Source: a phage. From it: a stretch of 64,000 nucleotides of DNA. The stretch lies in the NCBI GenBank assembly GCA_033664045.1, contig GCA_033664045.1_3674.1. One strand, written 5' to 3'. The translations under genes were made by a program, and so were the position numbers. The notes below the pieces were generated by a model that worked only from the letters and a program-made list of their open reading frames with translations, made no database searches and was not told the origin of the DNA. Position 1 is the first letter of the stretch. Every line of letters starts with the position of its first letter. Shown piece by piece: positions 3-16,998 of this stretch.

Positions 3-584
3 GCAGGGTTTGCTGCTGCCATCATGCTGGTAGTGAACGCCCTGACAAAAGGTTTTGTCATGGCATCTATGCTTGTAAAAACCTTCAAATTCCTTAGTTC
101 TATAAGAGGTGCAGCTGGAGCAGCAGGTGCAGGTGCAGCTACCACAGAAGGATCTGGTGGTGGTGCGGCAGGAAAAGGGGGAGGTGGCCTCAAGACACCT
201 GGTGGTAAAGTTGGCCTGCTTGGTAAGCTTGGTATTATCGGTACAATATTAAGCGCCGGGGAGTTATTTAATGACCGTTTCAACCCACTGAGTGAGAGAA
301 ATCAGCAACTGGATACTATCAGTGATATGATTCGCAAAGATATCATATCTGGAGGTAACGGGTTTGTTGATCCTTTGGACACCTTACCGGGAGGGACTCT
401 TCCGTTGCCAGGTGGCCCTGGTTTTGCTTCTCAATTAAGAACTATGGAAATGCTCCCTTTAGAGATTAGTGATGGTAAAATCACGATTTCAATAGATGAG
501 GGTGAGTTTAGCAAAATACTTGATGCAAAACTTGAGTGGGAGAACAACAAGGATATTAACTTTATGTCAACAGATCTTTGGTAA
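3..584 (+). CDS. structural protein, C-terminal fragment (Gly/Ala-rich; possibly tape-measure or tail protein); 5' end lies outside the window
   Basis: Frame is open from the window edge with no upstream stop; Gly/Ala-rich stretch plus hydrophobic segment LGKLGIIGTILSAG; followed by a terminator. Confidence 0.3.
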   Translation, partial: AGFAAAIMLVVNALTKGFVMASMLVKTFKFLSSIRGAAGAAGAGAATTEGSGGGAAGKGGGGLKTPGGKVGLLGKLGIIGTILSAGELFNDRFNPLSERNQQLDTISDMIRKDIISGGNGFVDPLDTLPGGTLPLPGGPGFASQLRTMEMLPLEISDGKITISIDEGEFSKILDAKLEWENNKDINFMSTDLW

Positions 585-690: not shown

Positions 691-1575
691 ATGCCAAGCA
701 ATATAGTTGATGAAAAAGACCTGTACAAGCCTCAAGAGGTTAAATCTCCAAAGGCTGAAAAGGCAGAGCAGCAAACTGAAAGCGATGTAAAGTACACTAT
801 GTTTGTCAGTGGTCTTAACTATGGTGGTCGCAATACGGAGATGAAGGGTAAAAACTTTACTAACGATCTTGCCATCATCTTCGATCAGATTGAGAATTAC
901 TCTTTCAAACATTCTGTTGATAAGACTGATTTTGCGGTGGAAGATAAATCTACCCTGTCAGACCACGCTGTAATTAAAGATGGTGTATTTTCTTTTACTG
1001 GTAGGGTAAATACATCACCACATATAATCTATGAGCAAAACTACATTGACAGGAATACTGACTCTAAAAACCCTGCAGCATCTATGCGACCGGGCGCTGC
1101 ACTGGAGGCTTTGACTGAGATTATCAATAAACGACAGTTGGTTTCTTTGGTTACCGAAGAGAGACTTCTTGAGAACTACATTATAACCAGCCTTTCTGCC
1201 AGCAAGTCTGTTGGTGAAGGTGCTGCAATGGTTTTTGATGTAGAACTTACAGAGTTCCGCACATTCTACTTGAACAAGGTAGTTAATGCAACTGTATACA
1301 GCAATCCTAAGAAAGTAGGCAAGACCCAACAAAAAGGTGCTGTCAACGACTGTAAGAATGGTAGTAACGTAGGTAACAAGAGGGACACAGGAGCATTCGC
1401 AGACACAGCATCCACAAATGCTGCAGAGGAGTGGCAGCCATACAAATCTATGATGTGGACAGATGAAAACGGTGTTACCCAATCGGCTGCGGATTGGTAT
1501 TATCAGGAATATGGAAGACCTTCTACCATAGTCCCATCTGAGCAGGGGAACTACAACAAAGTTAACGGGAAATAA
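691..1575 (+). CDS. hypothetical virion structural protein
   Basis: Track ORF 664-1575 trimmed to Met10, which is preceded by GGAGAGG; no motif recognised. Confidence 0.5.
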   Translation: MPSNIVDEKDLYKPQEVKSPKAEKAEQQTESDVKYTMFVSGLNYGGRNTEMKGKNFTNDLAIIFDQIENYSFKHSVDKTDFAVEDKSTLSDHAVIKDGVFSFTGRVNTSPHIIYEQNYIDRNTDSKNPAASMRPGAALEALTEIINKRQLVSLVTEERLLENYIITSLSASKSVGEGAAMVFDVELTEFRTFYLNKVVNATVYSNPKKVGKTQQKGAVNDCKNGSNVGNKRDTGAFADTASTNAAEEWQPYKSMMWTDENGVTQSAADWYYQEYGRPSTIVPSEQGNYNKVNGK

Positions 1576-1587
1576 GGGGAGCGTATA

Positions 1588-1968
1588 ATGGAGCTTAAAG
1601 ATTGGTGCATAATCACCTTTGTGTGGGACATTGACGGCTTTCCTGATCAAACCATGCGTGTTGTTTTAGACAATGAAACGTATGAAATGCGTATGCAATG
1701 GAATGAGAGGGATGAGTCCTGGTGGTTATCTCTTGGTCCAGTAGGTGACAGCCCTTTAGTAACCAGAAAAGTAACAGCTTGTCAAGATATTTTAGACGGA
1801 CTGCATTACAGAGATGATTTACCGAAAGGTAGACTGATGGCGCTGTCGTTTAAAGACGATCAATATTGGGGCAGGGTTGGAAGATATAACCTTGGGGCGA
1901 GATCTGAGCTACAACTTGTATACGGCACCCCAGTTGATCTTTACAAGGAACAGCAAGGGTTAGAATAA
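1588..1968 (+). CDS. hypothetical tail/baseplate protein
   Basis: ORF with RBS AAGGGGAG; stop overlaps the next start (TAATG). Confidence 0.45.
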   Translation: MELKDWCIITFVWDIDGFPDQTMRVVLDNETYEMRMQWNERDESWWLSLGPVGDSPLVTRKVTACQDILDGLHYRDDLPKGRLMALSFKDDQYWGRVGRYNLGARSELQLVYGTPVDLYKEQQGLE

Positions 1969-2972
1969 TGGCAGAGTACAGACGTAGAACATGGCGATTA
2001 TTGTTTGGTCGTCCTGTAGAACATGGCGGTAAATCAAAAACCAATATCCCAAAATCTGTTGAAAAGAAAGGGGAGAGTGATTCCGGAGTTTATGAAGTTA
2101 GCTCAGACACTGGTGCTGCCAATATAGAGTTTGACATACAAAAGGACAATACCAAAGAGCCAAACAAAGGTTATGTGACAGTTTACAACCTGTCTGACGA
2201 TACAGTTAACTATTTGGATATGCATCAGGCTGATGCCCTTGCAGTTATGTTTGAAGCTGGCTATGATAATGAGAACCAGTTGATATTCTCTGGAACTGTA
2301 GAGTTTGTTGAAGACAGGTGGGAAGGTCCGACCAGAAAAACTAAGTTCATCTTTGGGGATGGCACTGAGAACATCATTAAGTGCCAAAGCACAAGATCTT
2401 ATCAGAAAGGCACACCTCTGAACTCTGTGCTTAATGACCTACTGAAGGATATGAACTTGCCAAAAGGTAGGGTTGTTGGTTTTGGAAACCAGACTTTGCA
2501 ATACTCTATGGCTTTCTCTGGAAACACTGCAGAGAACCTCCGCAGGTTTGCAAGGCTGACCAACTCAACATTTAGCGTTCAGGATGGGGCTTTGTATTGG
2601 ACCAAGGTTGGAAAAAGGTTCAAAGACTCTGTGTTTGAAATAAGTGCAGAGTCTGGGATGCACGGATCTCCTACCCCTAAAAACCCAGAACCTGCTAAAA
2701 AACGAAAAGCTAAAGCTGCTGCCAAAGGTGGTTCGACATCTAAAAAGAAAAAGAAAAACCCGAGAGAGGATGTTGGCCTTACTGTAACCACATGCCTTAA
2801 CGGAGCTATCCTCCCAGAGTCCACCATTTATCTTAAAAGCAAGCAATATACAGGCTTCTATAAAGTGATCACGGTGCATCATAAGGGCACCATAGAAGGT
2901 GGTGATTACACTACAGAGCTTGGCCTTGGAGAAACAGTGGGTGGAGTTGTTGACAAAACTGAGGAGGTATAA
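1968..2972 (+). CDS. hypothetical structural protein (possible baseplate hub) with Lys-rich segment
   Basis: ORF coupled by TAATG at both ends; contains KKRKAKAAAKGGSTSKKKKK; functional call is positional only. Confidence 0.45.
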   Translation: MAEYRRRTWRLLFGRPVEHGGKSKTNIPKSVEKKGESDSGVYEVSSDTGAANIEFDIQKDNTKEPNKGYVTVYNLSDDTVNYLDMHQADALAVMFEAGYDNENQLIFSGTVEFVEDRWEGPTRKTKFIFGDGTENIIKCQSTRSYQKGTPLNSVLNDLLKDMNLPKGRVVGFGNQTLQYSMAFSGNTAENLRRFARLTNSTFSVQDGALYWTKVGKRFKDSVFEISAESGMHGSPTPKNPEPAKKRKAKAAAKGGSTSKKKKKNPREDVGLTVTTCLNGAILPESTIYLKSKQYTGFYKVITVHHKGTIEGGDYTTELGLGETVGGVVDKTEEV

Positions 2973-3649
2973 TGGCAATAAATAGGAAAGATGCTGCTGT
3001 AAGATCCTTCATAGAAAAAATAATGAGGGACTACCACACCAGTATCAGGGCCAGAGTTGTCAGTGTAGACTACAGTATCCCTTCTGCAGCCGTGCAGCCA
3101 ATAGCTGAAACCACGTTTGATGACGGGGATGTAGAGAGATACCCTCTTATCTATGACGTTCCAATTCAGGTGATGTCTGCAAACAGCGGAAAGGCAAGGT
3201 TAACACTCCCTATTAAGGCTGGAGATGTTGTAGGATTGCAGTTTTCAGAGAGAAATGAAAACAATAACGACGATCAACAAACTCACGGTCTGTTTCCGGG
3301 GTGGGCAATAACCTCTGTTCATTCAGACTCAAACGCTTTACAGATCGATCCTGATAACGTAGAGTTATGGAATGATAGGGTTTATTTTAAACTGACACCT
3401 TCTGGAGATTTTGAGCTTCAAACACCTGGTGGGACACTACGGTGCGACAGCAGCGGGGAGTTTTCTTTCACTAACGGGGCTGCCAATTTGCGAGCTGCTG
3501 TGGATGGAAATATCAGAATGAATGGTGCCACAATAGACCCATCTGGTAGAATTATAACTGCTGCTGGCGTGGATTTGGATTCATTCTATGCAGAATATAA
3601 AGGTCATACCCACTCTTGTCCTGATGGCGAGACAAGTGGACCGCACTAA
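2972..3649 (+). CDS. baseplate central spike-like protein (gpV/gp5-type N-terminal fold suspected)
   Basis: N-terminal region RARVVSVDYS...AGDVVGLQF resembles the P2 gpV-type pattern from memory; His/Cys-containing C-terminus. Confidence 0.4.
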   Translation: MAINRKDAAVRSFIEKIMRDYHTSIRARVVSVDYSIPSAAVQPIAETTFDDGDVERYPLIYDVPIQVMSANSGKARLTLPIKAGDVVGLQFSERNENNNDDQQTHGLFPGWAITSVHSDSNALQIDPDNVELWNDRVYFKLTPSGDFELQTPGGTLRCDSSGEFSFTNGAANLRAAVDGNIRMNGATIDPSGRIITAAGVDLDSFYAEYKGHTHSCPDGETSGPH

Positions 3650-3661
3650 TAGAGGGCTTTC

Positions 3662-4378
3662 ATGGCTACGCTTTATAGTGATATATTGATGGACCCACAG
3701 ACAGGCGATTTGGCGATAGACAAAGGTCTTGAGTTGATAGATTCAAACCAGGTAAGTCTGCGCCAGCGCTTGTGGATGAGGTTTAATACGTGGAAGGGGA
3801 GCTGGTACTTTGACGAGCTGTTTGGCTTCCCTTATATGGACTTTCTCAGCAAGAAGGTCATGAAGACTGTTCTTGATAACAAGATCATGGAAGTAGCAAG
3901 ACAAGAGCCGGATGTGCTAAACATCATAAACTTCCAGTCTACCATGGATCGAAGATCGAGAACATACCAAGCGTTCTTTGAGGTTGTTACCAAAGAGAAC
4001 GAGATTGTAAGGCTGGCTTTCGTAGGTCTTGATCAGTTCACATACCCACAGCCTGATTCTGGGACAACCTCTCTCTGTGATGATGAGGGTTGGATTAAGT
4101 GGGCTAATAAACTGTACTATCTGATCAACTTCAGATTACCTAGAACCGGAGATGCCACATGGTGGAACCAGTATGCTGGTCCTGAGATGGAAAACCCGAT
4201 CCCTGTAGGTTCTCTGTTGACTCAGGATAAAGATCTGCTGATGACCGAGGCAGAACAAACCATTAACCGCAATACCTGGACGCTTGCTCCAGATGAGCGC
4301 GAATACTCTGGTGTTATTGCTACCTCTAATGATGAGGCTATTGCCAACCAGTCTGGTCGTGCTATTGATGTTAACTAA
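3662..4378 (+). CDS. putative baseplate protein
   Basis: ORF with RBS in the structural block; no firm motif. Confidence 0.35.
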   Translation: MATLYSDILMDPQTGDLAIDKGLELIDSNQVSLRQRLWMRFNTWKGSWYFDELFGFPYMDFLSKKVMKTVLDNKIMEVARQEPDVLNIINFQSTMDRRSRTYQAFFEVVTKENEIVRLAFVGLDQFTYPQPDSGTTSLCDDEGWIKWANKLYYLINFRLPRTGDATWWNQYAGPEMENPIPVGSLLTQDKDLLMTEAEQTINRNTWTLAPDEREYSGVIATSNDEAIANQSGRAIDVN

Positions 4379-4387
4379 GGAGAAATC

Positions 4388-5056
4388 ATGGCTGTAGCTT
4401 ATCCTACAATACCAATTCCAGATCTTGAAGATGCAGAAACAGTCCTGAGTGATGACTTCTTGGTTGTCAACCAGACTGATGGGACAAGAAAGGCTAAGAT
4501 TGACGATGTTGTCAACGATCTTAGCATTACTAAGATAGTCTATTTCACAGAGGGTGGTTATCTTAAGAGCAAGAAGGACTTTGCTTATGACCCAGAAACT
4601 AAGCGCTACTACACGTGGAACGGGGATTATCCTAAAATAATCCTCCCAGACTCCACTGTAGAGGGTGCTGGAGGTGTGTCTGCAAATGCCTGGTCTGTTT
4701 TTGGTGAGCTTGCTGCAACTTCTTCTGGTAGAATAGTTGATTACGGATCTATCGGTGGTCAGCTTGATATGGATCTTGAAGTTGCGGATACCTTTAAGGT
4801 TCGACTAACTTCAAATACCACAATCTCTTTTGAAAATCAAACAGAAGGTCTTGAAGGGGTGGCGAGAACTATAACCGTATGCATTACTCAGACCTCTGGC
4901 GGCAACAAAGTCTATTGGCCTGGTAATGTTAAATGGTCCTACGGAAGAGATCCTATCCTAACATTTACAGCTGGTGCAACAGACATTTTCAAGTTGGAAA
5001 CCTACGACAACGGGTTAACTTGGTACGGAGCACTGATTATCGCAGGAGCTATCTAA
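4388..5056 (+). CDS. tail fiber/baseplate-associated protein with conserved N-terminal anchor domain
   Basis: N-terminus (DDFLVVNQTDGTRKAKIDDVV...FTEGGYL...DFAY) is paralogous to the N-terminus of the 7691-11491 protein; RBS AAGGAGA. Confidence 0.5.
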   Translation: MAVAYPTIPIPDLEDAETVLSDDFLVVNQTDGTRKAKIDDVVNDLSITKIVYFTEGGYLKSKKDFAYDPETKRYYTWNGDYPKIILPDSTVEGAGGVSANAWSVFGELAATSSGRIVDYGSIGGQLDMDLEVADTFKVRLTSNTTISFENQTEGLEGVARTITVCITQTSGGNKVYWPGNVKWSYGRDPILTFTAGATDIFKLETYDNGLTWYGALIIAGAI

Positions 5057-5057
5057 G

Positions 5058-7655
5058 ATGCGTATTCAACACAACATTGATAACGTATTTCAGATGATTG
5101 AGGGGCACAGGAAGTGCCTCGATAACAACACAGGTATTACCAATACCCCTACACAAAATAAGCTAGTAAACCCTGATGGTCTTATAGCTGCAGGGTGGGC
5201 AGGTAATAAGATAAATAATGATTGGGCAATGCATGAGTCCCAAGCTGTGTTGATTCTGGGATACATTGAAGCATACAGGGCATCGAAAAGCGATTTCTAT
5301 CTGGATAGGGCAAAAGATGCTTGGGAAGCTTACAATAGTCATCTTCTGGGTGCATATGCAGTAGAAAGTAAAATGCAAAGATTGTCCCACTACCCACTAT
5401 CCACAGATGGGGTTCCATCACATGGTGGGTTTAAAGATGTAGTGGTGTCTTTTACCAACGGTAGAGGAAAAATCCCAGCTGGATCTCCGACATGGGGTGA
5501 ATACCTAGACAAGGCATTCCAAGCGTATAACGGTGTGCTAGGAAGAAACACTGTAGACTCTGATGTTTACGGCGGCACAGATGCTAACCCAAATTGGACA
5601 ACATCTGGATTAAGTTGGTGGGTTGAGTGGTATATAGCATGGGATGGTAACCGCTATTGGGCCAACGGTAGCATAGCAGACAGTGGTCATACGTCGGCAG
5701 AGTTCGGCACAATCCAACTGCAGGATAAGGGTGTTACAGGCAGCCATAAGGTAACCTACTGTGTGAGATTGCCACAAGAGCAGGGTGGTTCAGTGATACC
5801 TGCTGGATCCCCTGTAATTGTAAATCCTATAAATGTGGTTGCAGACAATCAAGCCCCAGAGTTGGGCGGGGAAGAAATGTGGTGTGACGCTTGTTATCAA
5901 CTCTACACCTTAACAGGTGAGGAAAAGTATTACACAGCGTTTAAGCAGTCTTACAACAAGCTGCTTAATTTCAGCGATATAAATGCCTACGACAAACTGT
6001 TTAGAAAGACCACGTTAATTAAGGCACCGTTCACAGATGGTACTTGTCTCGTCGCAGGAACAGTTCCTGTCATGAGCAGGGACAGTGACGGGTATATCAA
6101 TTTTAGAATGAACGCACGTCAGCCTTGCGAAATAATTCAAAAAGGGACTACATACAAGATAGGCAGAGATGCTGAAATTGTTATGAATTTCGGAGGAGAA
6201 GGGGTTCTGTTCCAGCCACACTTCATCCTTAATGATGGTAACAATAACAAAAAACAGTATAGGATAGGGGTCCCTTTTGGAGGGTCAGAGGTAACAGAGA
6301 CAGTTGCCAAGGTTACTGATTTCGTAGAGGTGGTTGGTAAAGACGGTAATCCGTATCTCTTGCCAAAAGAGGAAAACATTGCCGTAAGCGGTGGCGCTAG
6401 TGTTAGTATGCAGTATGATACCGACATTTATAACCACTCCGACAACTTCACCCGTTGCAACATAGCAAGAGGCAAGGTAACTTTCAATTTTGGAAGAGAG
6501 ATTTCTTTAAACTCAGTAACTTATCGCTCAGATGATGAGATGGTAAGGGCCAAATTCCTTGACAAAGACCGTTGGTTATGGTATGCTGATCTATATGCCA
6601 CTAACGGACAATGGGTAACAGAAACTCTTACCCTAGGTGATTTTAAACTAGACCCAACACAACCTCATCACACAGAAGATGAGATTAAACCTTTCTTTGC
6701 TAATCCTAAAGGAATTACCTCTGTAGATTTCAGTCTGAGCGACAGGCAGATAGGCAATGGCTTGTTCGATCTGTATTGCGTCAACACGCTGCCGCAATTT
6801 TATGTTGCAGATAGGGATGCTTATCTGATCTGGTTTAGTGTATGGATGGCAAGTAAGACAGAATCAACAGCCAAAGTTGGTGATTGCTATGTCAGAAACT
6901 ACAAGCAAGGTGCATACAGGTACACACCGGGTGTATTCCCTGCCGGAAAGGTGATAGATAAGGAAAACTATCTCTTAGAGGAAAAGCCAAATTGGCCCTA
7001 CCCTGGCATGCAATACCCAGCAGTCTACTGCATGGGTGCAGAAAACATAGATCGCCATAGGTTGTCAAATACAATAGGCTTTCTGTATGATGCTCAAGTC
7101 TGGTATAATAATACATTTAAGACAGAGGGTCCAGTTGCCTCACGTTATGTATGGCAGAGAGGTAATGAGGGGTTGACTGGTTGGTGGGAGATGGTAGATA
7201 ACTCTAAACTCCAATCAAGAGCCTTTGTTGCTGCGTGCCGCACACTGTACGAGCTTAAGAAACATAAAGAACCTGTTGACGAAAGACTGTTCCTGTTCTG
7301 CCAGAAATGGGCATGGTTCCTCAACAGATTCCAGTCATCTCATTCAGGAAATCTGCCTACAGACTTTAACACCTCTGGGGGATATTCTTATCAAGACAGA
7401 GGGGACAGGATGTGGGTGGTAGGTGAATGGCTTGCAGGTTGCTGCTGGCTAGGTCTGTGCGGGTATTCAGAGACAATACCTCAAATAGATATTGTTGTAG
7501 AAGCCTGCGTGAAGCTACTGCAAAAGCACCACTTCATCAATGGGGATAATGTTTTAAACGGCTGCTGGGCAGTTTCTGATCCGGTGGGCTATCACTCTGG
7601 CGAAATCCTTCGCGGTCTGGGCCTTTATGCTCAATACCGTGGATTGTACCTTTAA
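5058..7655 (+). CDS. large tail-associated protein (865 aa; possible receptor-binding or enzymatic spike)
   Basis: Own RBS GCAGGAG 9 nt upstream, starting 1 nt after the previous stop; Trp/Gly/Asn-rich; no anchor domain. Confidence 0.4.
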   Translation: MRIQHNIDNVFQMIEGHRKCLDNNTGITNTPTQNKLVNPDGLIAAGWAGNKINNDWAMHESQAVLILGYIEAYRASKSDFYLDRAKDAWEAYNSHLLGAYAVESKMQRLSHYPLSTDGVPSHGGFKDVVVSFTNGRGKIPAGSPTWGEYLDKAFQAYNGVLGRNTVDSDVYGGTDANPNWTTSGLSWWVEWYIAWDGNRYWANGSIADSGHTSAEFGTIQLQDKGVTGSHKVTYCVRLPQEQGGSVIPAGSPVIVNPINVVADNQAPELGGEEMWCDACYQLYTLTGEEKYYTAFKQSYNKLLNFSDINAYDKLFRKTTLIKAPFTDGTCLVAGTVPVMSRDSDGYINFRMNARQPCEIIQKGTTYKIGRDAEIVMNFGGEGVLFQPHFILNDGNNNKKQYRIGVPFGGSEVTETVAKVTDFVEVVGKDGNPYLLPKEENIAVSGGASVSMQYDTDIYNHSDNFTRCNIARGKVTFNFGREISLNSVTYRSDDEMVRAKFLDKDRWLWYADLYATNGQWVTETLTLGDFKLDPTQPHHTEDEIKPFFANPKGITSVDFSLSDRQIGNGLFDLYCVNTLPQFYVADRDAYLIWFSVWMASKTESTAKVGDCYVRNYKQGAYRYTPGVFPAGKVIDKENYLLEEKPNWPYPGMQYPAVYCMGAENIDRHRLSNTIGFLYDAQVWYNNTFKTEGPVASRYVWQRGNEGLTGWWEMVDNSKLQSRAFVAACRTLYELKKHKEPVDERLFLFCQKWAWFLNRFQSSHSGNLPTDFNTSGGYSYQDRGDRMWVVGEWLAGCCWLGLCGYSETIPQIDIVVEACVKLLQKHHFINGDNVLNGCWAVSDPVGYHSGEILRGLGLYAQYRGLYL

Positions 7656-7658
7656 CAT

Positions 7659-7679
7659 AGGGGGCTGTTTGCCCCCTTT
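7659..7679 (+). other. intergenic hairpin (weak terminator or RNA-stability element)
   Basis: gggggcTGTTTgccccc followed by only ttt, then the RBS. Confidence 0.3.
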
Positions 7680-7690
7680 CAGGAGAAAGA

Positions 7691-10600
7691 ATGGCTGATA
7701 TTAAAGTTGTCAGAATTGAATCTCTTCCTGCCACTACCGCAGTGACAGAGGATGATTACCTGGTTGTTCAACAACCAGACCTGACCCGTCGTGTAAAAAT
7801 TGGCGATGTTGTCCATGTGGATGGGACTGTTTCTCATGTAATCTCCTTTAAGGAAGGTGGTAAGTTAAACGGCCCAATGGATTTTGCCTACTTCGAAGAG
7901 GAAGACCTCTACCTGCGTTGGAAAGGCGAATTTCCACACACTGTTCCTGCACTGTCTTCACCATACTCCGATGGCGGGATTACTGACGCTGCATGGATGG
8001 TATATACAGATCCGTCCTTAAGGGAGGAGCTGGAATCTACCATTGGCGCATCTATGATCATGACAGCCGAAGGGCAGTCTGTCCAGGATGTGATGGATGT
8101 TACTGTTCAGACAGCTAACGATGCTAAAGCGCTTGCACAGCGTGTAGATTTTGGTACAGTGCACACTGTAGGTGATGTTATCCACCTCGATAACTTTGTT
8201 GGCCCTGCAGTTATTGAAGAGGGAAGAACCACCAACTATCCTTCTGTAGCAGCTGGTGAAAAATTTCTGAACGGTGTGGTATCTCGTCGTGATACTACAA
8301 CTGTTGATGGTATTTTCCGTGGCGCTACCTCCGGAGCAATGTATACCATCGCAGTAACCAACGGTGTAGCGACAACAAAAAGAATAGCACTTCGTGATGA
8401 ATTTAAACGCCTGGAGGCAAACAACCCAACAAGAACAGTTATCCGTGCTGGAGATGATTTAAACACGGCAGGGTACTTGCAGCTTGATGCAACAGGTCGT
8501 TGGGGTATGTGGAACCAACAAACAGCTTCTTGGCAACCTCTTGCTATAGAGCAAGGCGGTACAGGGGCCAGAGATGCCGCTGGAGTCCGTATCAATATCG
8601 GGGCTTTCTATAAGCAACGTGCAGCCCTTGAGCCAAATTTCAATATCAATAATTTGACTGGTAATCAGGATGGTGTATACTACCAGCCGATGACTGCTTA
8701 TGCAACTGAGGCAAATGGTTACCCTGCAGGTTCTGGTGCTGGTCACTTGATTGTTTGGCAGAACAATGCTAACGGCGGTACAGGTTGTCGTCAGGAATAC
8801 TATCCATTCTCTAACGTAGATGTTTGGTATTTGAGAACCTATCAGGCCAACACAAATCAGTGGACTGCATGGCAGCCGATGGTCAGACCTCGTAACGATG
8901 ATACCTTCAGATCTCATATTGGCCTTGGTAAAAACAACTCGCCAGCCTTCGGGCACCTTTACCTAGCTCAATACTCGGGAGATGTTAAATCGGCCTCAGG
9001 TATTCTCCATGGAGATAAATATAATACTGACGGTGTCCTTGAGCATGGATATAGGATCTATTCTGAGGTAAGAAACGACAATAAGGCTTGGTTGACAATC
9101 CACCTGCACAAAGGCGCAAAAGGATCTGAAACTCATAGATATTTAGGCTTCCGTGAGGATGGGGTCTTAGATTGTCCTAAATATATGCAGGTTGGTGATC
9201 TGAACGGTCAGCTGGCAAACTGGGGACTTGGAGAATGGATCCGCAGTTCAGGAGCAGAAAGAGGTTTCTGGGGATCTAAGAAAGCCGCCAAGATGGTTGT
9301 CTGGGATGGTGGGATGGACGAATCCGGTAACGGCACTCTGGAATGGGGTGTTTATAACAACCGGAAGGCCAAGTGGGAACCTTTACCTCAAGCCGCAGGT
9401 GGTACTGGGGCTACAACTTTAGCAGATGCTCAGAATCTGTTCAAAGTCCCTATAGCAGCAGGTGTGAAAGACTTCTTAACACTGCCAAGAACCGCAGGGA
9501 TGGAAGATGGGAAATACTACCCAATCATCGTTAGAACAGATCCGTATTACGCCCCTTCGACAGGTACAGATATTACCATAGTTACCAGATCGTCATCTGG
9601 AAATGACCCTATGAACTGTGCGACCTTACAGTGTCACTATAGAACTGGTGGTTGGACAGACAGAGGAGACTCTTTCTACGGGGTAGTAAATTTCTACCAG
9701 AATGAAAAAGCACTTCTTGGGATGGTTGCTCCAACAAGGGGTAAACAAGAATATGTTGCTTTCTATGTGGAGGCTCGTGCCTTCCCTGTCAGCATATACG
9801 CAAGTAGAAATGTTATCGAAGTGTTTACCAGAGAGCAAGATTACCAGGTTGGCTCTGTAACAGACAATCAGGATGGGGTTAAGTTCGTTGCACCTCTTCA
9901 GTCAGCAGATTTGAATCTTGCTGTTCTAGGAGATAACAACACCAATACCAGACCTATTGTTGACTTCAAAGGTACTTCAGGGTTCTACACTGGCGGCGGC
10001 ACACAGTGGCACTATATAGGCACTGCTGAACGCTATGCTGTGATGAGCAAAATGAATATGCCAAAAGTCGAGCTATGGGCAGACGGTCTTGACTATTTGT
10101 GCTACGGCAGTCCTAGAAAGGCGTTATTCTCTAATGCAGGATTCCAGTGTGCATCAGATGGGACAGAGGATCTGACTAACGGTACGTTTACCTCTAAATG
10201 CGGTAATGGTGCTGGTCTCAAAGGTCAGGCAGAGTTCAGATCTACTCCGGAAGCGGGTCAAGTTATTGTTCGCGATGTTGTAGGCACAGCTCATAGATTC
10301 TACAACTTCAACAAGGATGGTACTTTCTCAGCTCCTGGCGGTTTTGTATGTCATACTGGTGCAGACTGGAACAACCAGTTTGGGCCTAACAACCCTTCTA
10401 AAATAATGGCAGGCAATGTCAACGGACCTGAAGGATCGATGGTTGTTGGTGGGTTGTCTGTGGCGTTTTCTGGAAACTATGCCTTCCAAATGGCTGGTCG
10501 CCTTGATCAGTTATATACCAGATCTATCGAGGGTGGTAACCATAGGGCATGGAACAAGGTTATACAGCACAGAGGACAGGGTCTTGGGACAAACGACCTT

Positions 10601-11491
10601 AACGACTACAAAGGAGATAGGGAGGGTTTTTATCATCAGGAGGCCAATGCTCAAGCCGCACTTGATAAAAACTACCCATGCTCCCAGGCAGGTACTCTCG
10701 TTGTCTACAGAAACTATGCCAACGTTCCAGAGAGTTGCGTACAGGAATATACAACATATCTTGGAGAAAAATTCCTGCGTTATGGAACAACGATAGGTGG
10801 TGTTTTCACATGGGGCCATTGGCAGCAGCTTGGTGGTAAGGGTATCACTCTAAAAACTCAAGGATCCAATCTTGAACCGGAGTTCACAATACACACGGGT
10901 GGTGGGACGGATGTTACCAACACTTCCAACATGCCTTCTAATACAGGCAGGTTGTACTATTGGGGCAATGGCGCAGATAGGAAGAATGTGCTGGAGTTTC
11001 AGATAAGTGATAACTCAACAGTCGCCAGTTGGGTATTCCACTGTGGCGCTAAGACAGATGAGGCTAAATCAAGATATTTTGCTGTCAACGGTACGGTAGA
11101 ATGTACTACTGTTAGCCAAAGTTCCGATAGGGACCTGAAGGATAACATAGAGGTCATACCTAACGCTCTGGAAGCAATTAGAAAAATGAAAGGCTATACC
11201 TACACCTTGAAAGAGAATGGTATGCCTTATGCAGGCGTGATTGCTCAAGAGGTTATGGAAGCATTGCCAGAGGCAGTAGGATCTTTCGTGAAAAGGAAGG
11301 AAATAGAAGGTCCTACTCAAGACGGTATTCCTCTGATGACCGAGGAAAGGTTCTATAACGTTGACTACGCAGCTGTAACAGGCTTGCTTGTCCAGGTTTG
11401 CAGGGAACAGGACGATAAAATAACCGCCCTTGAGGAGCAGGTTAAAAAATTGACAGAGGTTGTTACTGGATTGCAAGAGAAACTGAAGTAA
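7691..11491 (+). CDS. tail fiber/tailspike protein with C-terminal peptidase S74 intramolecular-chaperone domain
   Basis: C-terminal about 130 aa (SDRDLKDNIEVIPNALEAIRKMKGYTYTLKENG...AGVIAQEV) matches the self-cleaving chaperone domain of endosialidase/T5 pb1-type fibers; N-terminus paralogous to the 4388 protein. Confidence 0.8.
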   Translation: MADIKVVRIESLPATTAVTEDDYLVVQQPDLTRRVKIGDVVHVDGTVSHVISFKEGGKLNGPMDFAYFEEEDLYLRWKGEFPHTVPALSSPYSDGGITDAAWMVYTDPSLREELESTIGASMIMTAEGQSVQDVMDVTVQTANDAKALAQRVDFGTVHTVGDVIHLDNFVGPAVIEEGRTTNYPSVAAGEKFLNGVVSRRDTTTVDGIFRGATSGAMYTIAVTNGVATTKRIALRDEFKRLEANNPTRTVIRAGDDLNTAGYLQLDATGRWGMWNQQTASWQPLAIEQGGTGARDAAGVRINIGAFYKQRAALEPNFNINNLTGNQDGVYYQPMTAYATEANGYPAGSGAGHLIVWQNNANGGTGCRQEYYPFSNVDVWYLRTYQANTNQWTAWQPMVRPRNDDTFRSHIGLGKNNSPAFGHLYLAQYSGDVKSASGILHGDKYNTDGVLEHGYRIYSEVRNDNKAWLTIHLHKGAKGSETHRYLGFREDGVLDCPKYMQVGDLNGQLANWGLGEWIRSSGAERGFWGSKKAAKMVVWDGGMDESGNGTLEWGVYNNRKAKWEPLPQAAGGTGATTLADAQNLFKVPIAAGVKDFLTLPRTAGMEDGKYYPIIVRTDPYYAPSTGTDITIVTRSSSGNDPMNCATLQCHYRTGGWTDRGDSFYGVVNFYQNEKALLGMVAPTRGKQEYVAFYVEARAFPVSIYASRNVIEVFTREQDYQVGSVTDNQDGVKFVAPLQSADLNLAVLGDNNTNTRPIVDFKGTSGFYTGGGTQWHYIGTAERYAVMSKMNMPKVELWADGLDYLCYGSPRKALFSNAGFQCASDGTEDLTNGTFTSKCGNGAGLKGQAEFRSTPEAGQVIVRDVVGTAHRFYNFNKDGTFSAPGGFVCHTGADWNNQFGPNNPSKIMAGNVNGPEGSMVVGGLSVAFSGNYAFQMAGRLDQLYTRSIEGGNHRAWNKVIQHRGQGLGTNDLNDYKGDREGFYHQEANAQAALDKNYPCSQAGTLVVYRNYANVPESCVQEYTTYLGEKFLRYGTTIGGVFTWGHWQQLGGKGITLKTQGSNLEPEFTIHTGGGTDVTNTSNMPSNTGRLYYWGNGADRKNVLEFQISDNSTVASWVFHCGAKTDEAKSRYFAVNGTVECTTVSQSSDRDLKDNIEVIPNALEAIRKMKGYTYTLKENGMPYAGVIAQEVMEALPEAVGSFVKRKEIEGPTQDGIPLMTEERFYNVDYAAVTGLLVQVCREQDDKITALEEQVKKLTEVVTGLQEKLK

Positions 11492-11498
11492 CTGTTTT

Positions 11499-11523
11499 GC
11501 CCTCGCTTCGGCGGGGGCTTTTT
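11499..11523 (+). terminator. rho-independent terminator with TTCG tetraloop
   Basis: gccctcgcTTCGgcgggggc followed by ttttt, 8 nt after the fiber stop. Confidence 0.7.
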
Positions 11524-11590: not shown

Positions 11591-12181
11591 ATGTTTTTAT
11601 GGGAAAGGCCTAGATACCTTCCAGATATTAGATTGGAGCTGCTGGCAGATATTGTTACGTTTAAAAGTCCGTTTACAGGTAAAACGCAAAAAGTAACCTA
11701 TGCCACACCTAACTGGAAAGGCACTTTGACGGTTTCCAATATCAGCGAGTCACAGTTGCTAGAGCTTAAGAGCTTTGTTGATCAGGTGTATAGAGATGGA
11801 AACATCTTTCTTATTAAAACTTACGGTCACTCAGTTACAGCTAATGAGCCAATCGCCCTTGGGCCTACTGGTAACGACGATTTTTTGAAGACGGTTGGGT
11901 GGGAGCCAAACAGAGACATAGCCAGAGCTGGGGATAAAATATCTGTCAATGATGAATTGAAAGTGGTAACAGCTCCAGTGCGTAGCGATGGTGTTGGGTC
12001 TGCTGTTATAAGCATATCTCCAAGACTTAGAAAACCTATTGCCGCAGGGGACACTATGAAGATAATAACTCAATCCCCGAAGGGTAGGTTTCATATCAGA
12101 GATATTTATAAAATTAAGCAAAAAGTTGATGCTATGCAAAAAGGTGATAATATAGTTATCAACTTCTTTGAGGATTTCTAA
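11591..12181 (+). CDS. distal tail/tail-tip protein (lambda M-like position)
   Basis: First gene of a four-gene set ending in an NlpC/P60-like protein and a J-like giant protein; RBS AGGAGG. Confidence 0.35.
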   Translation: MFLWERPRYLPDIRLELLADIVTFKSPFTGKTQKVTYATPNWKGTLTVSNISESQLLELKSFVDQVYRDGNIFLIKTYGHSVTANEPIALGPTGNDDFLKTVGWEPNRDIARAGDKISVNDELKVVTAPVRSDGVGSAVISISPRLRKPIAAGDTMKIITQSPKGRFHIRDIYKIKQKVDAMQKGDNIVINFFEDF

Positions 12182-12182
12182 G

Positions 12183-12734
12183 ATGATCAGAGCGCCATTA
12201 GATAATTTATTTCTTGAAAAGCTGGAGCTTGATGGTGTTGAGATCTTAATTGCTGCAAAGCTGGAGCTACCGACAGGAACTGTCAGGGTGTGCTCAGGCA
12301 CTGGTGTTGTAGTAATTGAGGGGCAACATTTTATAGGGATAGGTGGATCAGCAACATTAACTGCTGTGTCTGAGAAAGATGCCACCAACTTCGGATCTGT
12401 GGTAGCGACATTGAACGGGTTTGATCCTAAGTATGTGGGTGATCTACTGAAGACGGAGTATTCTGGGTGTCGTGCCACGTTGTACATTACCGCTATGGAG
12501 AATGGTCTACCTGTTACAACCAATGGCTTGTTTGACGGCCTTATAACAGATATGGCTATTCAGACGGGTGAGAATAGTGCTTTGTCCATATCCATCTCTT
12601 CCATCTTCAACAGTTGGTTAAGAGGTTTTCCTTATCGGTACACAGAGGAAAGCCATAGCTCAAGAAACGATAATGACAGATTTTTTAAATATGTGGATCA
12701 GGTGGCGAGTCGCCCGATCATTTGGGAGGTTTAA
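12183..12734 (+). CDS. tail-tip protein (lambda L-like position)
   Basis: Track ORF 12168 trimmed to the ATG at 12183, which has GAGGAT upstream and lies 2 nt after the previous stop. Confidence 0.35.
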   Translation: MIRAPLDNLFLEKLELDGVEILIAAKLELPTGTVRVCSGTGVVVIEGQHFIGIGGSATLTAVSEKDATNFGSVVATLNGFDPKYVGDLLKTEYSGCRATLYITAMENGLPVTTNGLFDGLITDMAIQTGENSALSISISSIFNSWLRGFPYRYTEESHSSRNDNDRFFKYVDQVASRPIIWEV

Positions 12735-13159
12735 TGAGCACACACCCTCGTTTAGTGGATTGGCAAGAAAGATTGTGGAAAGTATTTGACGAAGAGGCCA
12801 CCATACCTTTTGAATGGGGATTCCACGATTGTTGCACCTTTGCAGCTAAGTGTGTTGATGCCCAATACGGAACAGATTTTCTTTCTAACTTCGAAGGAAC
12901 GTATAAAACAGAGTTGGAAAGCAAAAGATGGTGCATGCTTCGTTTCAAAACTACACACCTGCCTACTATTTTTGATCTCTTTTTGACTCGACTGGATACT
13001 CCTAAACAGGTTCAGCGTGGCGATATTGTTATTTTCGAAGGTCTGAACGGCCTCACCGCTGGTGTGTTCTGGAACAACCAGATTTGGGCGAAAGGTAATA
13101 AAGGGATCTTTACGTTCGATATGAAAGATTCTATCGTTGTTGATGTCTGGAGGTATTAA
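12734..13159 (+). CDS. NlpC/P60-like tail protein (lambda K / GTA g14-like)
   Basis: PFEWGFHDCCTF (Cys motif) and RGDIVIFEG...AGVFW (His-region pattern); ATG overlaps the upstream stop (TAATG). Confidence 0.5.
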   Translation: MSTHPRLVDWQERLWKVFDEEATIPFEWGFHDCCTFAAKCVDAQYGTDFLSNFEGTYKTELESKRWCMLRFKTTHLPTIFDLFLTRLDTPKQVQRGDIVIFEGLNGLTAGVFWNNQIWAKGNKGIFTFDMKDSIVVDVWRY

Positions 13160-16100
13160 TGCCAATTGCAATGATTGATAACATCGTTGCTTCTGCAAGA
13201 TCTTCAAGTTATGACTGGAACGCATCCAAGGCAGCTCTGGCTGACAGCCTGAACACTGTTACCACCAGAACTCTGGATAAGATTTTTGAGGGCAACAAAT
13301 CTTACAGAAGTCAGCAAGATAGACAAAAGCTTCTCAGATCTTCTGCTGCACCTTGCTCTGTAGTGTATGGGAAGACACGCACATCCGGATTGCTTGCGTT
13401 TTTGGAGCAGGATAGAGACAGAACTCTCCACTGTGCTATTGTTCTTGCCAATCACCCTCTGGAAGGTATAGAAGATATACTTATCGACGGTAACCCTATT
13501 TCCTCGTATGGGGATTTGGTATCGTGGGAGCTACATAACGACAGAAAAACATCTGATCCTTTCATGGGGACACACTGCCCATCGTGGTCACCAGACATGA
13601 TAGGTAGAGGGATCAGTTGGCTACGTGCCAGTTTCAAGTTTGACCCTAACAAGTTTCCTTTTGGGTTGCCAAACGTTACACTCGTCAAGGTTGGTAAAAA
13701 ATGCTATGATCCTCGCATCAGTAAAGAGGTGTATACCAATAACGCTGCCTTGGTGATCTTAGACTATTTAAGAACGTACCTTAAATGTCCTGACGAAACC
13801 ATCAACTGGGAGTCCTTCAAGGAGGCTGCCAACATATGCGACGAGGCGGTAAAAAACGCTGACGGAACCAGTGAGCGACGTTACACCATTAACGGTGAGT
13901 TTGACATGGATGAGGTCCCCGCAAGTATTATGGCAGAAATGCTGAAAGCTTGCGGTGCAGACCTTAGTTATGTTGCTGGTAAGTATGGTTTGCTGGTTGG
14001 TGCATACTATGGTCCGGCAACAATGACATTGAGTGAGGACTGTGTCTGTGGTGAGGTTAAGATCTATCCGGAAGCCTCGTTTGACAAAAGATCCAACACA
14101 ATAACTGGCAGATTCACTAGTCCGACCAAAGGGTATTCTGAAACAGATTTTCCATCAGTGTTTGTCCCAGAGTGGATAGAGAAGGATGGAGAAAGAAAGA
14201 TAATCGATATAGACTACCGCTTTGTTACCAGTCCTTATCAAGCTCAACGTGTTTCTGCAATCTTCCTAAGACGTGCCAGAGCTGGCAGGATTATTGAAGT
14301 CACCTGCAATATGCGAGGTTTTAAATTTAAACCTGGTCGTTACGTTACAATGGACCTCCCAAGTATTGGTATAGTGGGCCAAGAAATGAGGGTTCTTGAA
14401 TGGGAGTTCACCAAAAAGGGCGGTGTCAAGGTAAAACTTCGTCAAGATGCTAAAGAGTGGAATGATGCCACAGGGCAACTTCCGGATTCTGGCGATGTAG
14501 ATATTCCGATATCTCCATCTGGTGTAGCTCAACCGCAAAACTTCAGATATTCCGTTCTCCAAGCTGGAGAAGTAACTCACGGTGTTTTGGCTTGGGACAA
14601 CGTTGGGACTTACGCTCAAAATATTGTGCAGGTAAGAAAGAACGGAGAGATTGTTTGGACAGCACAGACAGTTGAGCAGTTTGTCCGTGTTGAAGGCTTG
14701 ACCAAAGGGTCATACACAGCAACCGTGGTTGCAACATCCTATAAAGGTGGTGTATCTCCAGAAGCGTACTGTGAGTTTAACATTCAGGCACCTGAAGCTC
14801 CGGTTTCTGTAGAGGTTAAGCAAGGATACTTTGCTATCACCTTGATTCCGCATAGTAGGGATTTAGCAAGTGTTAGCACCCAGTATGACTTTTGGACATC
14901 TGGTATGACAAGGTTGCCAGACACCAGTGATGCAACCGTTACTTCAAACGCCACCCGTATGGGTGTTGGTTCAACTTGGACATCTGAAGGACTGCAGAAC
15001 GATAAGGTTTATTATTGGTATATTCGAACCACAAACGCTTTTGGTAGCTCTCAGTTTGTAGAATGCGCTGCACGCTGCTACACCTCTATAGAGGATTTGA
15101 TGCCTCAGATAGATGCCGAATTCAAAAAGACAGAAACTTATAAAGAGTTGATGAGCACTTTGGATTCCTCTATTGAAGAGGTTGAAAATCGTGTCACAGA
15201 ACTTAACAGGTACATGGAGGGTAGGGTAGATGAAGCGTTCCAGCAGCTTGGTGACAGAATAGGTGCGGTAGTTACAGAAACAACTCAGAAGTTTGAAGAT
15301 GTCAATGGTAACATTACAGCGCTGGATAGGAAACTTGTTGCTGCACAGAACAAATTCACCAACGACCTGAACACTGAAAGTGGCAGACTGGCATCTCTAA
15401 TCGAGACAACCAATAAAGCAACCACTGATCTTCTGAACAAAAAGACAGAGGCTTTAGATGAGAAATTGGTTGCCGCCAAAGGTGAGCTGGTAGAGCAGAT
15501 AGAGGGAGTTGAGAGCGGGTATTTAGCCGGAGATAAAACTCTGGATGGTAAGATCAATACTCAGAGAACAGAACTTGACGCAAGTATCTTGAGCACTAAC
15601 CAATCCACTGTAGATCTTTTGAACAGGACATCTGAAACTCTGGATCAAAAGATTAGTCAGACAAACGCGACGGTATCTAAAAACTATACCACCCTTGACG
15701 GCAAGATAACTACCGCAAAAACTGACCTCAACACCTTGATTGCCAATACCAACAAGGCCACCACTGACTTGCTGAATCAGAAAACATCTGCACTGTCAGA
15801 GCAGATAACTTCTGCACGTGGGGAGATTTCTACCAATAAGCAAGCGATTGATGCTTTGGATGGAAAACTGACCTCCACAAAAACAGCGCTGGATGCTACA
15901 ATTTCCGATACCAACAAAGCCACTGTGGACCTTATCAACGGCACAGCGTCAGCTATTCGTCAAGAACTTGCTGTTGCTAAGCAGGAGATCATGGATGATG
16001 TTGGGGATGTGTCTGAGATCAGGGCTGCAGTAGCTACAACATCTAAGGCTGTGACCGACTTAGAGGGTAAAGTAAATGCTCAATGGGGCACAAAAATACA

Positions 16101-16998
16101 GGTAGACTCCGCAGGGAATAAATATGTTGCAGGTATTCAGTTGGGGATGGAAGGGTCTGGAGGCCAAGTTCAATCCTACTTCATGGTTAGTGCAAACAAT
16201 TTTGCGGTATACAACCCTGGCAATGGAACAGCAACCCTTGCTTTCGCAATCAAGAACAACCAAGCATTCTTGAAAGACGCTTTTATAGAGAATGGCACGA
16301 TCTCCTCTGCCAAGATCGCACAAGAAATCTCGTCAAACAACTACGATGGCAACGGGTACCATAAATACGGTTGGTATATTAACAAGAACGGGCACGCCCA
16401 ATTTATGGATGTGTGGGTGAAAGGCAACATCAACGCTAGTTCTGGTAACTTCACAGGGGCAGTTAACGCCACAAGTGGTACCTTCCGTGGGGATGTTTAT
16501 GCCAATAATGGTAGCTTTAGGGGCACCATAGATGCAACCGGAGGTACCTTCCGTGGTCGTGTGGAAGCTTCTGTTATCCGCGCTAACCAGTTCGAAGGTG
16601 CAATTGTTGCACACAGAACTTACGGGGATTGTGCTCCAGTATATAACTCCCAGCAAAGGGTTTGCCGTTGGAGGTGGAGATACGTAGATAACGTTTCAGG
16701 TCAGGGTAAGAACGTAACATTCTTCTTTAAACTGAATGGTACTCTTGCCAGCTCCCAACTGAATGCATGGATAGCTGGTCATCAGATCCTTGCTGGCAAG
16801 AAGTATTTTAACGACAACAACGGTATGTGTGCGGTAGGGATAACAGGTCTGGGTGAACAAACTATAGATATTGTTATCGAGATCTACACACCATGGTCAA
16901 CGTCTTCTGTAACAGGGGTCGCAATATCCTGTCCTACTGTTGTGGTAAGCCGTTCTAACTCAAGCTTCCAGGGACCTTGGAACGAGTCTCACGACTAA
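13159..16998 (+). CDS. giant central tail fiber/host-specificity (J-like) protein with FN3-like region and coiled-coil repeats
   Basis: 1279 aa; central region resembles the lambda J / Phage-tail_3 pattern from memory; FN3-like segment; repeated TNKATTDLLN motifs; Gly-rich C-terminal beta region. Confidence 0.5.
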   Translation: MPIAMIDNIVASARSSSYDWNASKAALADSLNTVTTRTLDKIFEGNKSYRSQQDRQKLLRSSAAPCSVVYGKTRTSGLLAFLEQDRDRTLHCAIVLANHPLEGIEDILIDGNPISSYGDLVSWELHNDRKTSDPFMGTHCPSWSPDMIGRGISWLRASFKFDPNKFPFGLPNVTLVKVGKKCYDPRISKEVYTNNAALVILDYLRTYLKCPDETINWESFKEAANICDEAVKNADGTSERRYTINGEFDMDEVPASIMAEMLKACGADLSYVAGKYGLLVGAYYGPATMTLSEDCVCGEVKIYPEASFDKRSNTITGRFTSPTKGYSETDFPSVFVPEWIEKDGERKIIDIDYRFVTSPYQAQRVSAIFLRRARAGRIIEVTCNMRGFKFKPGRYVTMDLPSIGIVGQEMRVLEWEFTKKGGVKVKLRQDAKEWNDATGQLPDSGDVDIPISPSGVAQPQNFRYSVLQAGEVTHGVLAWDNVGTYAQNIVQVRKNGEIVWTAQTVEQFVRVEGLTKGSYTATVVATSYKGGVSPEAYCEFNIQAPEAPVSVEVKQGYFAITLIPHSRDLASVSTQYDFWTSGMTRLPDTSDATVTSNATRMGVGSTWTSEGLQNDKVYYWYIRTTNAFGSSQFVECAARCYTSIEDLMPQIDAEFKKTETYKELMSTLDSSIEEVENRVTELNRYMEGRVDEAFQQLGDRIGAVVTETTQKFEDVNGNITALDRKLVAAQNKFTNDLNTESGRLASLIETTNKATTDLLNKKTEALDEKLVAAKGELVEQIEGVESGYLAGDKTLDGKINTQRTELDASILSTNQSTVDLLNRTSETLDQKISQTNATVSKNYTTLDGKITTAKTDLNTLIANTNKATTDLLNQKTSALSEQITSARGEISTNKQAIDALDGKLTSTKTALDATISDTNKATVDLINGTASAIRQELAVAKQEIMDDVGDVSEIRAAVATTSKAVTDLEGKVNAQWGTKIQVDSAGNKYVAGIQLGMEGSGGQVQSYFMVSANNFAVYNPGNGTATLAFAIKNNQAFLKDAFIENGTISSAKIAQEISSNNYDGNGYHKYGWYINKNGHAQFMDVWVKGNINASSGNFTGAVNATSGTFRGDVYANNGSFRGTIDATGGTFRGRVEASVIRANQFEGAIVAHRTYGDCAPVYNSQQRVCRWRWRYVDNVSGQGKNVTFFFKLNGTLASSQLNAWIAGHQILAGKKYFNDNNGMCAVGITGLGEQTIDIVIEIYTPWSTSSVTGVAISCPTVVVSRSNSSFQGPWNESHD
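15400..15990 (+). repeat. degenerate intragenic tandem repeats (about 150-190 nt period) encoding coiled-coil heptads
   Basis: Four copies of acCAAtAAaGCaACcACTGAtcTtcTGAAc-like units at about 15409, 15596, 15748 and 15910. Confidence 0.6.

Follow-up and report, generated by a model that had tools for sequence, protein, structure and literature searches.

Does the large fibre gene in this 64,000-nucleotide stretch of phage DNA (hereafter the window) encode a tail fibre that cuts off its own C-terminal chaperone, and if so, where would the mature protein end? The window belongs to a Vequintavirus (an rV5-like myovirus of E. coli), and the open reading frame was recovered exactly as originally given (Table 1), with an AGGAG ribosome-binding site on its 5′ side and a terminator-like hairpin beginning 8 nt past its stop codon. 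Its 1266-aa product matched the tail fiber family phrog_6578 with 1754 bits. Orthologues of the gene are rV5 gp41 (ABI79112, 1272 aa), Bas54_0027 of phage MaxBurger and Bas58_0027 of phage HeinrichReichert, with which it shares genome position and neighbours, and at the nucleotide level it is 96.7% identical to its counterpart in phiWec191 and 95.2% identical to that in HeinrichReichert, annotated as ‘lateral tail fiber protein’. The orthologue is dispensable on E. coli K-12. The next gene downstream, 11591..12181, is a distal-tail-protein-like baseplate gene.

Table 1 Features of the fibre locus and of the Tfa-like chaperone gene, in window coordinates
Feature	Position	Strand	Details and basis
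Lateral tail fibre precursor gene	7691..11491	+	ATG start, 1266 aa, 138.8 kDa (ORF list)
Tail_spike_N (TSP1/gp66-type) anchor domain, residues 46–103	7826..7999	+	Pfam PF18668, E 2.2e-10
Variable distal part of mature fibre, residues 951–1144	10541..11122	+	Amino acid identity vs rV5/MaxBurger; T4 gp34 profile
Recombination junction vs phage PDX	11062..11086	+	Megablast; sliding identity
C-terminal intramolecular chaperone (Peptidase S74), residues 1145–1266, 13.7 kDa	11123..11488	+	PF13884; AF2; Foldseek
Ser1145 codon, predicted nucleophile	11123..11125	+	Invariant in 34 homologs; SSDR motif of S16 gp37 aligns
Lys1150 codon, predicted general base (Ser +5)	11138..11140	+	Invariant in 34 homologs; T5 pb1 spacing
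Terminator-like G+C-rich hairpin, then T run	11499..11518	+	Consensus scan: 8-pair stem, 7 GC pairs
Tfa-like chaperone gene, Caudo_TAP PF02413	22432..23016		E 8.4e-12

In order to examine the C-terminus, the protein was searched against Pfam, as the original prediction had proposed, and Peptidase_S74 (PF13884) was found at residues 1145–1196 with an E-value of 7.5e-15 and 55.4 bits (gathering cut-off 22 bits), covering profile positions 1–57 of 58. The domain stands at the extreme C-terminus of a protein that matches tail-fibre PHROGs and carries a tailspike N-terminal domain. The hallmark motif is present as SDRDLKDNI; its serine is residue 1145 and lies 122 residues from the C-terminus when counted inclusively, close to the length of about 130 that had been expected. 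Among the best 120 of 383 homologs, every one of the 120 matches listed carried PF13884, and in 34 aligned homologs Ser1145, Asp1146, Arg1147 and Lys1150 were invariant. Sequence matches of the C-terminus in the PDB were S16 gp37, the best, and the MyRF ICA domain. The catalytic dyad of endoNF is Ser911/Lys916. In T5 pb1 the dyad is Ser1264/Lys1269 and cleavage falls between Thr1263 and Ser1264 (PMC4690869). In the T5/K1F mechanism an Arg and an Asp from the region upstream, contributed by a neighbouring chain, act as a ‘folding sensor’. In the window fibre Arg1128 and Asp1123 lie near Ser1145, at positions off the T5 folding-sensor offsets, and are not conserved in prophage homologs.

The fold of the domain was modelled with AF2 as a monomer of residues 1125–1266 (pLDDT 80), giving a small alpha/beta unit, a long beta-hairpin (~1196–1224) and a C-terminal helix (~1226–1265), the element that makes the trimeric coiled coil in S74 chaperones. 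Its six best Foldseek matches all came from 7dc3 (MyRF ICA), 4uw8 (T5 pb1 with its chaperone) and 3gw6 (endoNF chaperone), with probabilities of 0.99–1.0 and E-values of 2e-4 to 3e-3 for these chaperones, the next match having E > 0.6. TM-scores to the solved chaperones were modest (0.38–0.52), which we attribute to the domain having been modelled outside its trimer. For the last 300 residues, where the tip is presumably an intertwined trimer, a monomer model (pLDDT 74, pTM 0.34) gave no significant fold match in the PDB; the R1 pyocin fibre came closest, at E 0.077.

Three known systems outside the orthologue group bear comparison. T5 pb1, likewise a long side fibre, ends in a chaperone of ~130 residues and has a Ser/Lys dyad with +5 spacing, a beta-hairpin ‘tentacle’ and a central helix, all as in the window fibre or its model; however, the two chaperones are only ~16% identical, tip domain and N-terminus are unrelated, and T5 is a siphovirus whereas the window phage is a myovirus. 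The domain of the window fibre has its family, its fold class and the proposed autoproteolytic release in common with the chaperone of K1F endoNF (3GW6), founder of the MEROPS/Pfam family S74. The endoNF chaperone serves a sialidase tailspike, whereas upstream of the chaperone in the window fibre no enzymatic domain was detected with Pfam or NCBIfam. In gp37, the distal long tail fibre protein of Salmonella phage S16 (6F45), alignment with the window fibre takes in both the beta module preceding the cleavage site and the motif ‘SSDR.(L/I)K’; S16 needs a separate, downstream-encoded gp38 adhesin, and no such gene was found in the window.

By analogy with T5 pb1 we place the predicted scissile bond between Ser1144 and Ser1145, so that the mature protein would end at nucleotide 11122. 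The original prediction had thus named the right residue, the serine of SDRDL, but its position of about nucleotide 11090 was 11 codons off. In the proposed mechanism, three fibre chains would associate, and the 122-residue S74 chaperone would nucleate and register the folding of the beta-structured distal part that precedes it. When the trimer has folded correctly, Lys1150 would activate Ser1145 to attack the Ser1144–Ser1145 bond in each chain, and the 13.7-kDa chaperones would then be released as a trimer. The virion fibre would consist of residues 1–1144 (125 kDa per chain), anchored by its N-terminal tailspike-type domain and exposing its distal part, ~951–1144, for host recognition. The predicted semi-tryptic C-terminal peptide of such a cleaved fibre is YFAVNGTVECTTVSQS (residues 1129–1144).

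Data from orthologues agree with this picture. All three named above share the C-terminal S74 domain, at 84–100% identity to that of the window fibre. rV5 gp41 is present in the virion proteome, and HHpred has tied its C-terminus to 3GW6 (2013, PMC3606486). The MaxBurger fibre with a C-terminal S74 domain shows no cryo-EM density for that domain, in a low-resolution (7–9 Å) study of an allele with a different tip (2025, PMC12143355). In a whole-genome search Bas54_0027 was the sole S74 ORF of MaxBurger, and the fibre called RBP_11 in the cryo-EM work is equated with it, indirectly, for that reason. The reading as a self-cleaving S74 fibre is therefore supported by the Pfam profile, by the invariant Ser1145 and Lys1150, by the chaperone fold, by orthology to a protein linked to 3GW6 and by the missing S74 density on the MaxBurger fibre, with cleavage itself as a prediction. 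We hold it to be very likely that the gene encodes a Vequintavirus lateral fibre with a self-releasing S74 chaperone, a virion chain of residues 1–1144 and a variable tip. S74 chaperones on coliphage fibres, those of this orthologue group included, are already documented, and the finding is in that respect an ordinary one. Its value is practical, for annotation and engineering, and it raises no new question: the mature fibre should be annotated as residues 1–1144, and host range might be engineered by exchanging the variable block (~951–1124) while retaining the S74 module.

Other fates of the C-terminus were weighed against this reading. S74 might be cleaved off and the newly exposed end then dock a separate adhesin or fibre component, as in S16, where gp38 caps gp37 once the chaperone has left, instead of serving as the receptor tip. 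That the C-terminus matches S16 gp37 best among PDB sequences, that the last ~60 residues before the serine form a shaft-type module shared with T4 gp34, and that the RBPseg authors raised the possibility of a gp38-like adhesin for MaxBurger (PMC12143355) all speak for such docking. We nevertheless find it distinctly improbable: the gene immediately downstream resembles a distal tail protein, not an adhesin, none of the fibre-locus proteins scanned matched the GP38 family, and the only Gly-rich ORF of the window (3..581) sits where HeinrichReichert, by synteny, has the annotated 3′ end of its tape-measure gene. Moreover, the MaxBurger fibre shows no adhesin density by cryo-EM (PMC12143355), and residues 951–1144 are hypervariable, as expected for receptor contact. 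It is more improbable still that the S74-like domain stays in the virion as the distal end of the fibre, whether uncleaved or cleaved but not released. The phi29 appendage is a precedent for some variation in the final location of the serine (PMC4690869), and cleavage of the window fibre is a prediction; against this, serine and lysine are invariant across the 34 homologs, the orthologue's fibre lacks S74 density in the virion (PMC12143355), and the uncleaved form of the T5 protein was unable to compete for receptor (PMC4690869).

There is next to no chance that the fibre is an endosialidase, the identity suggested by the annotation of the phage PDX orthologue as ‘endo-N-acetylneuraminidase’ and by the HHpred match of rV5 gp41 to a K1F endosialidase entry (PMC3606486). 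The likeness to K1F is limited to the chaperone, 3GW6 matching residues 1125–1266 only; residues 104–1144 contain no sialidase or glycosidase family of Pfam or NCBIfam, and sequence matches in the PDB are confined to N-terminal anchor domains and S74. We conclude that the PDX label is an artefact of chaperone-domain similarity. Sialidase identity was accordingly rejected, no glycosidase family matching the fibre protein.

Returning to the self-releasing fibre, its presumed receptor-binding tip, residues 951–1144, is the most variable stretch among fibre alleles. In rV5 and MaxBurger its counterpart is a different tip allele with 42–60% amino acid identity, compared with 66–100%, mostly ≥90%, for residues 1–950; the window tip is 6 residues shorter. 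Anchor and shaft are shared with rV5 gp41 (94–100% identity over most of residues 1–900), and Bas58_0027 is 94–100% identical along the whole length. Within the tip, residues ~1085–1144 form a T4 gp34-like ‘WGN...VNG’ beta module, with profile matches to 5nxf and 4uxe just upstream of the serine.

Comparison with PDX revealed a fibre in which a tip unlike that of the window, of rV5 type, is fused to an identical, window-type S74 module at a sharp junction 13–20 codons before the serine. Nucleotide identity to PDX was 53–68% upstream of the junction and 97–100% from ~11086 to the stop codon; in megablast of 10829..11491, coverage began at query position 237, with 99.5% identity. This raises the idea that S74 module and tip reassort independently, a tip cassette of ~200 residues being exchanged between homology arms supplied by the conserved S74 DNA and the conserved shaft; we offer it tentatively and think it unlikely to hold. 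If it did, one chaperone would serve tips that are only ~50% identical, and, by extension, a further fibre component might dock to the newly exposed gp34-like end, so that cleavage would become a checkpoint in the assembly of a branched fibre. A Vequintavirus allele without S74, pangalan_174 (1479 aa; EmilHeitz RBP_10 type), is the same fibre to about residue 1046, with 92–100% identity in most bins of 50 residues as far as residue 950; its C-terminus is replaced by ~430 residues that finish in a lectin-like head with a weak ConA-like match. Lacking S74, it presumably does not cleave itself.

The fibre had also been predicted to be the only one here with S74 maturation, the others using a Tfa-like chaperone. 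No significant second S74 was found in the six-frame translation of the window by phmmer, a custom profile (with --max) or a motif regex, nor does the whole MaxBurger genome hold another, which bears out the first part. The second part applies to two fibres: the Caudo_TAP gene sits between the paralogous short Mu-gpS-like fibres 21377..22417 and 23432..24475, a locus that BASEL relates to Mu gpS/gpU. It is too broad as a generalisation to the large fibre-like proteins (5058..7655, 13159..16998, 19292..21364, 24761..26506 and 26555..32182), which showed no sign of a chaperone; Pfam found no second Caudo_TAP gene among the fibre-locus proteins and none adjoining the other fibre genes. Neither the S74 fibre nor the short fibres nor the Tfa-like protein had a match in NCBIfam.

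At the opposite end of the S74 fibre, the Tail_spike_N domain is presumed to be the module for attachment to the baseplate or to a branched fibre complex, and its sequence matches in the PDB are the N-termini of CBA120 tailspike 4 (5w6h) and of other tailspike or tail-fibre chains. Residues 1–400 are 100% identical in rV5, MaxBurger and pangalan. A neighbouring 222-aa protein (4388..5056) also has a PF18668 domain. A self-BLASTP search of the fibre returned no internal repeats at E < 1e-3, although the knob-like segments near residues 340–400 and 1000–1065 look alike by eye.

The fibre gene encodes a 1266-residue protein, with an ATG start codon preceded by AGGAG and, 8 nt past the stop codon, a terminator-like G+C-rich hairpin followed by a T run. 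A second hairpin, a perfect one, follows the stop codon of the preceding gene (7655) and comes before the fibre gene's ribosome-binding site; these two G+C-rich stem-loops bracket the fibre gene. Two domains of the protein exceeded the Pfam threshold (see table), and it was placed in tail-fibre PHROGs families (phrog_6578, 1754 bits). The original prediction of a C-terminal S74 domain in this reading frame is essentially right, apart from two small corrections, to the coordinate of the serine and to the scope of the Tfa-like chaperone. The SDRDL motif starts at Ser1145, from which 122 residues run to the protein end; its codon, previously placed at about 11090, is at 11123-11125.

Features of the fibre gene and of the fibre locus around it
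Feature	Position	Evidence or description
222-aa protein	4388..5056	Tail_spike_N, E ~2e-10; phrog_7760
Upstream hairpin	7661..7680	GGGGGC/GCCCCC
Fibre gene (+)	7691..11491	lateral tail fibre
Tail_spike_N (PF18668)	residues 46-103	Pfam E 2.2e-10
Peptidase_S74 (PF13884)	residues 1145-1196	Pfam E 7.5e-15, 55.4 bits (cut-off 22)
Downstream hairpin	11499..11518	terminator-like
Distal-tail-protein-like	11591..12181	phrog_1302
Tail protein	12168..12734	phrog_2048
DUF6950	12722..13159	
Lambda-J-like, 1279 aa	13159..16998	Phage_Tail_Tip and Ig_J domains
"Lateral tail fibre", 690 aa	19292..21364	PF23845 (E 1.3e-79), PF23844, Calx-beta
Short fibre	21377..22417	paralogue of 23432..24475
Caudo_TAP protein	22432..23016	E 8.4e-12
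Short fibre	23432..24475	paralogue of 21377..22417

The assignment of the C-terminus to the intramolecular chaperones was supported by both sequence and predicted structure. A sequence search of the PDB matched it to S16 gp37 (6f45) and the MyRF ICA domain (7dc3), both of the S74 chaperone class. The last 300 residues retrieved 383 homologs; among the matches listed, all 120 carried PF13884 and most were E. coli prophage tail fibres. Ser1145, Asp1146, Arg1147 and Lys1150 were invariant in an alignment of 34 homologs, and the Ser-to-Lys spacing of five equals that of Ser1264/Lys1269 in T5 pb1 (PMC4690869). AlphaFold2 modelled residues 1125-1266 (pLDDT 80) as a small alpha/beta unit with a long beta-hairpin and, at the C-terminus, a helix of 40 residues, a layout that agrees with the published description of the T5 chaperone (PMC4690869). 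The six best Foldseek matches in the PDB were all solved intramolecular chaperones, those of MyRF ICA (7dc3), T5 pb1 (4uw8) and endoNF (3gw6), with probabilities of 0.99-1.0 and E values of 2e-4 to 3e-3, the next match having E >0.6. TM-scores to the solved chaperones were modest (0.38-0.52), as expected because a monomer was modelled and the domain exists only as an intertwined trimer.

The fibre gene is 96.7% identical in DNA sequence to that of Escherichia phage phiWec191 and 88-96% identical to those of many other Vequintavirus (rV5-like myovirus) genomes. At 82-95% identity, this gene of E. coli Vequintavirus phages is also present in some 18-25 unannotated "Campylobacter phage" records (MG0656xx). 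Orthologs include rV5 ORF 41 (gp41, 1272 aa), MaxBurger Bas54_0027 and HeinrichReichert Bas58_0027, a "lateral tail fiber protein" with an identical gene neighbourhood (the latter two being BASEL phages). An S74-bearing fibre is already known for this ortholog group: gp41 was detected in the rV5 virion proteome and its C-terminal domain matches 3GW6 with an HHpred probability of 98.7 (PMC3606486). In the RBPseg study (PMC12143355), Vequintavirinae fibre class TC12 includes MaxBurger RBP_11, which ends in a peptidase S74 domain, and EmilHeitz RBP_10, which terminates in a lectin-like head. A six-frame profile search of the complete MaxBurger genome found Bas54_0027 to be its single S74 ORF, which implies that RBP_11 is the ortholog of the fibre gene. 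According to a transposon study (bioRxiv 10.1101/2025.11.20.689424), bas54_0027 is not needed on E. coli K-12, and certain lateral fibre genes are conditionally essential when the hosts are clinical isolates.

In T5 pb1 the Thr1263-Ser1264 bond is cut, the serine leaving with the chaperone, and the uncleaved protein is unable to compete for the receptor (PMC4690869). Transposed to the fibre protein, Ser1145 activated by Lys1150 would cut the Ser1144-Ser1145 bond, giving a mature chain of residues 1-1144 (125.1 kDa, last nt 11122) and setting free a 13.7-kDa piece. No residue of the fibre sequence was assignable as the Arg "sensor" that a neighbouring chain supplies in the T5/K1F mechanism. Retention of the S74 domain on the fibre is unlikely, being opposed by the invariant Ser/Lys dyad and by the absence of S74 density from the MaxBurger virion fibre in cryo-EM. 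A tip formed by a gp38-like adhesin docked on the fibre, as in S16, is likewise improbable: neither the region downstream of the fibre gene nor the rest of the fibre locus yielded such a gene, and adhesin density was absent from the ortholog fibre in cryo-EM. Cleavage at Ser1144-Ser1145 is the reading we infer by analogy with T5 pb1.

Compared with rV5 and MaxBurger, residues 1-400 were 100% identical, residues 951-1144 only 42-60% and the S74 domain 84-100%. The approximately 60 residues directly preceding the serine form a module common to the T4 gp34 shaft and S16 gp37. Phage PDX combines an rV5-type tip with the S74 module of the window, DNA identity being 53-68% before and 97-100% after a step at about nt 11062-11086, 13-20 codons 5' of the serine; tip and chaperone have therefore been exchanged separately. 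The PDX ortholog (809..4627 of its record) is annotated "endo-N-acetylneuraminidase", a label reflecting chaperone similarity only, as the fibre protein matched no glycosidase family in Pfam or NCBIfam. At megablast level the last 663 nt were matched in 85 of the 123 phage records with the fibre gene, 29 of them over at least 80% of this length. The pangalan fibre is common up to about residue 1046 and continues with some 430 unrelated residues that gave a weak concanavalin-like match; S74 is absent from this allele. A small hypothetical gene, pangalan_175 (5940..6144 of that record), starts at the fibre stop codon with a 1-nt overlap; its first 68 residues have no Pfam match, and it could encode the lectin-like head's own chaperone.

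The claim that no other fibre here matures in this way held: a second S74 domain was not found when the other fibre-locus proteins were compared with Pfam, nor by phmmer, an unfiltered custom S74 profile or a motif search of the window translated in six frames. The suggestion that the other fibres use a Tfa-like chaperone stands only for the two paralogous short fibres, which flank the one Caudo_TAP gene in a locus linked by BASEL to Mu gpS/gpU; no chaperone was identified for the other, large fibre-like proteins of the window. Upstream, the 222-aa protein shares Tail_spike_N, at a similar E value, and phrog_7760 with the first part of the large fibre (7691..8120), suggesting a common type of docking site for the two in a branched fibre complex. 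The 690-aa protein, which BASEL considers an ECA-targeting deacetylase fibre, matches the TIM-barrel and N-terminal domains of the non-contractile tail sheath protein. The four genes at 11591..16998 form a siphovirus-style tail-tip module within this myovirus fibre locus, and in the rV5 record they are annotated as similar to tail proteins of Yersinia phage PY54.
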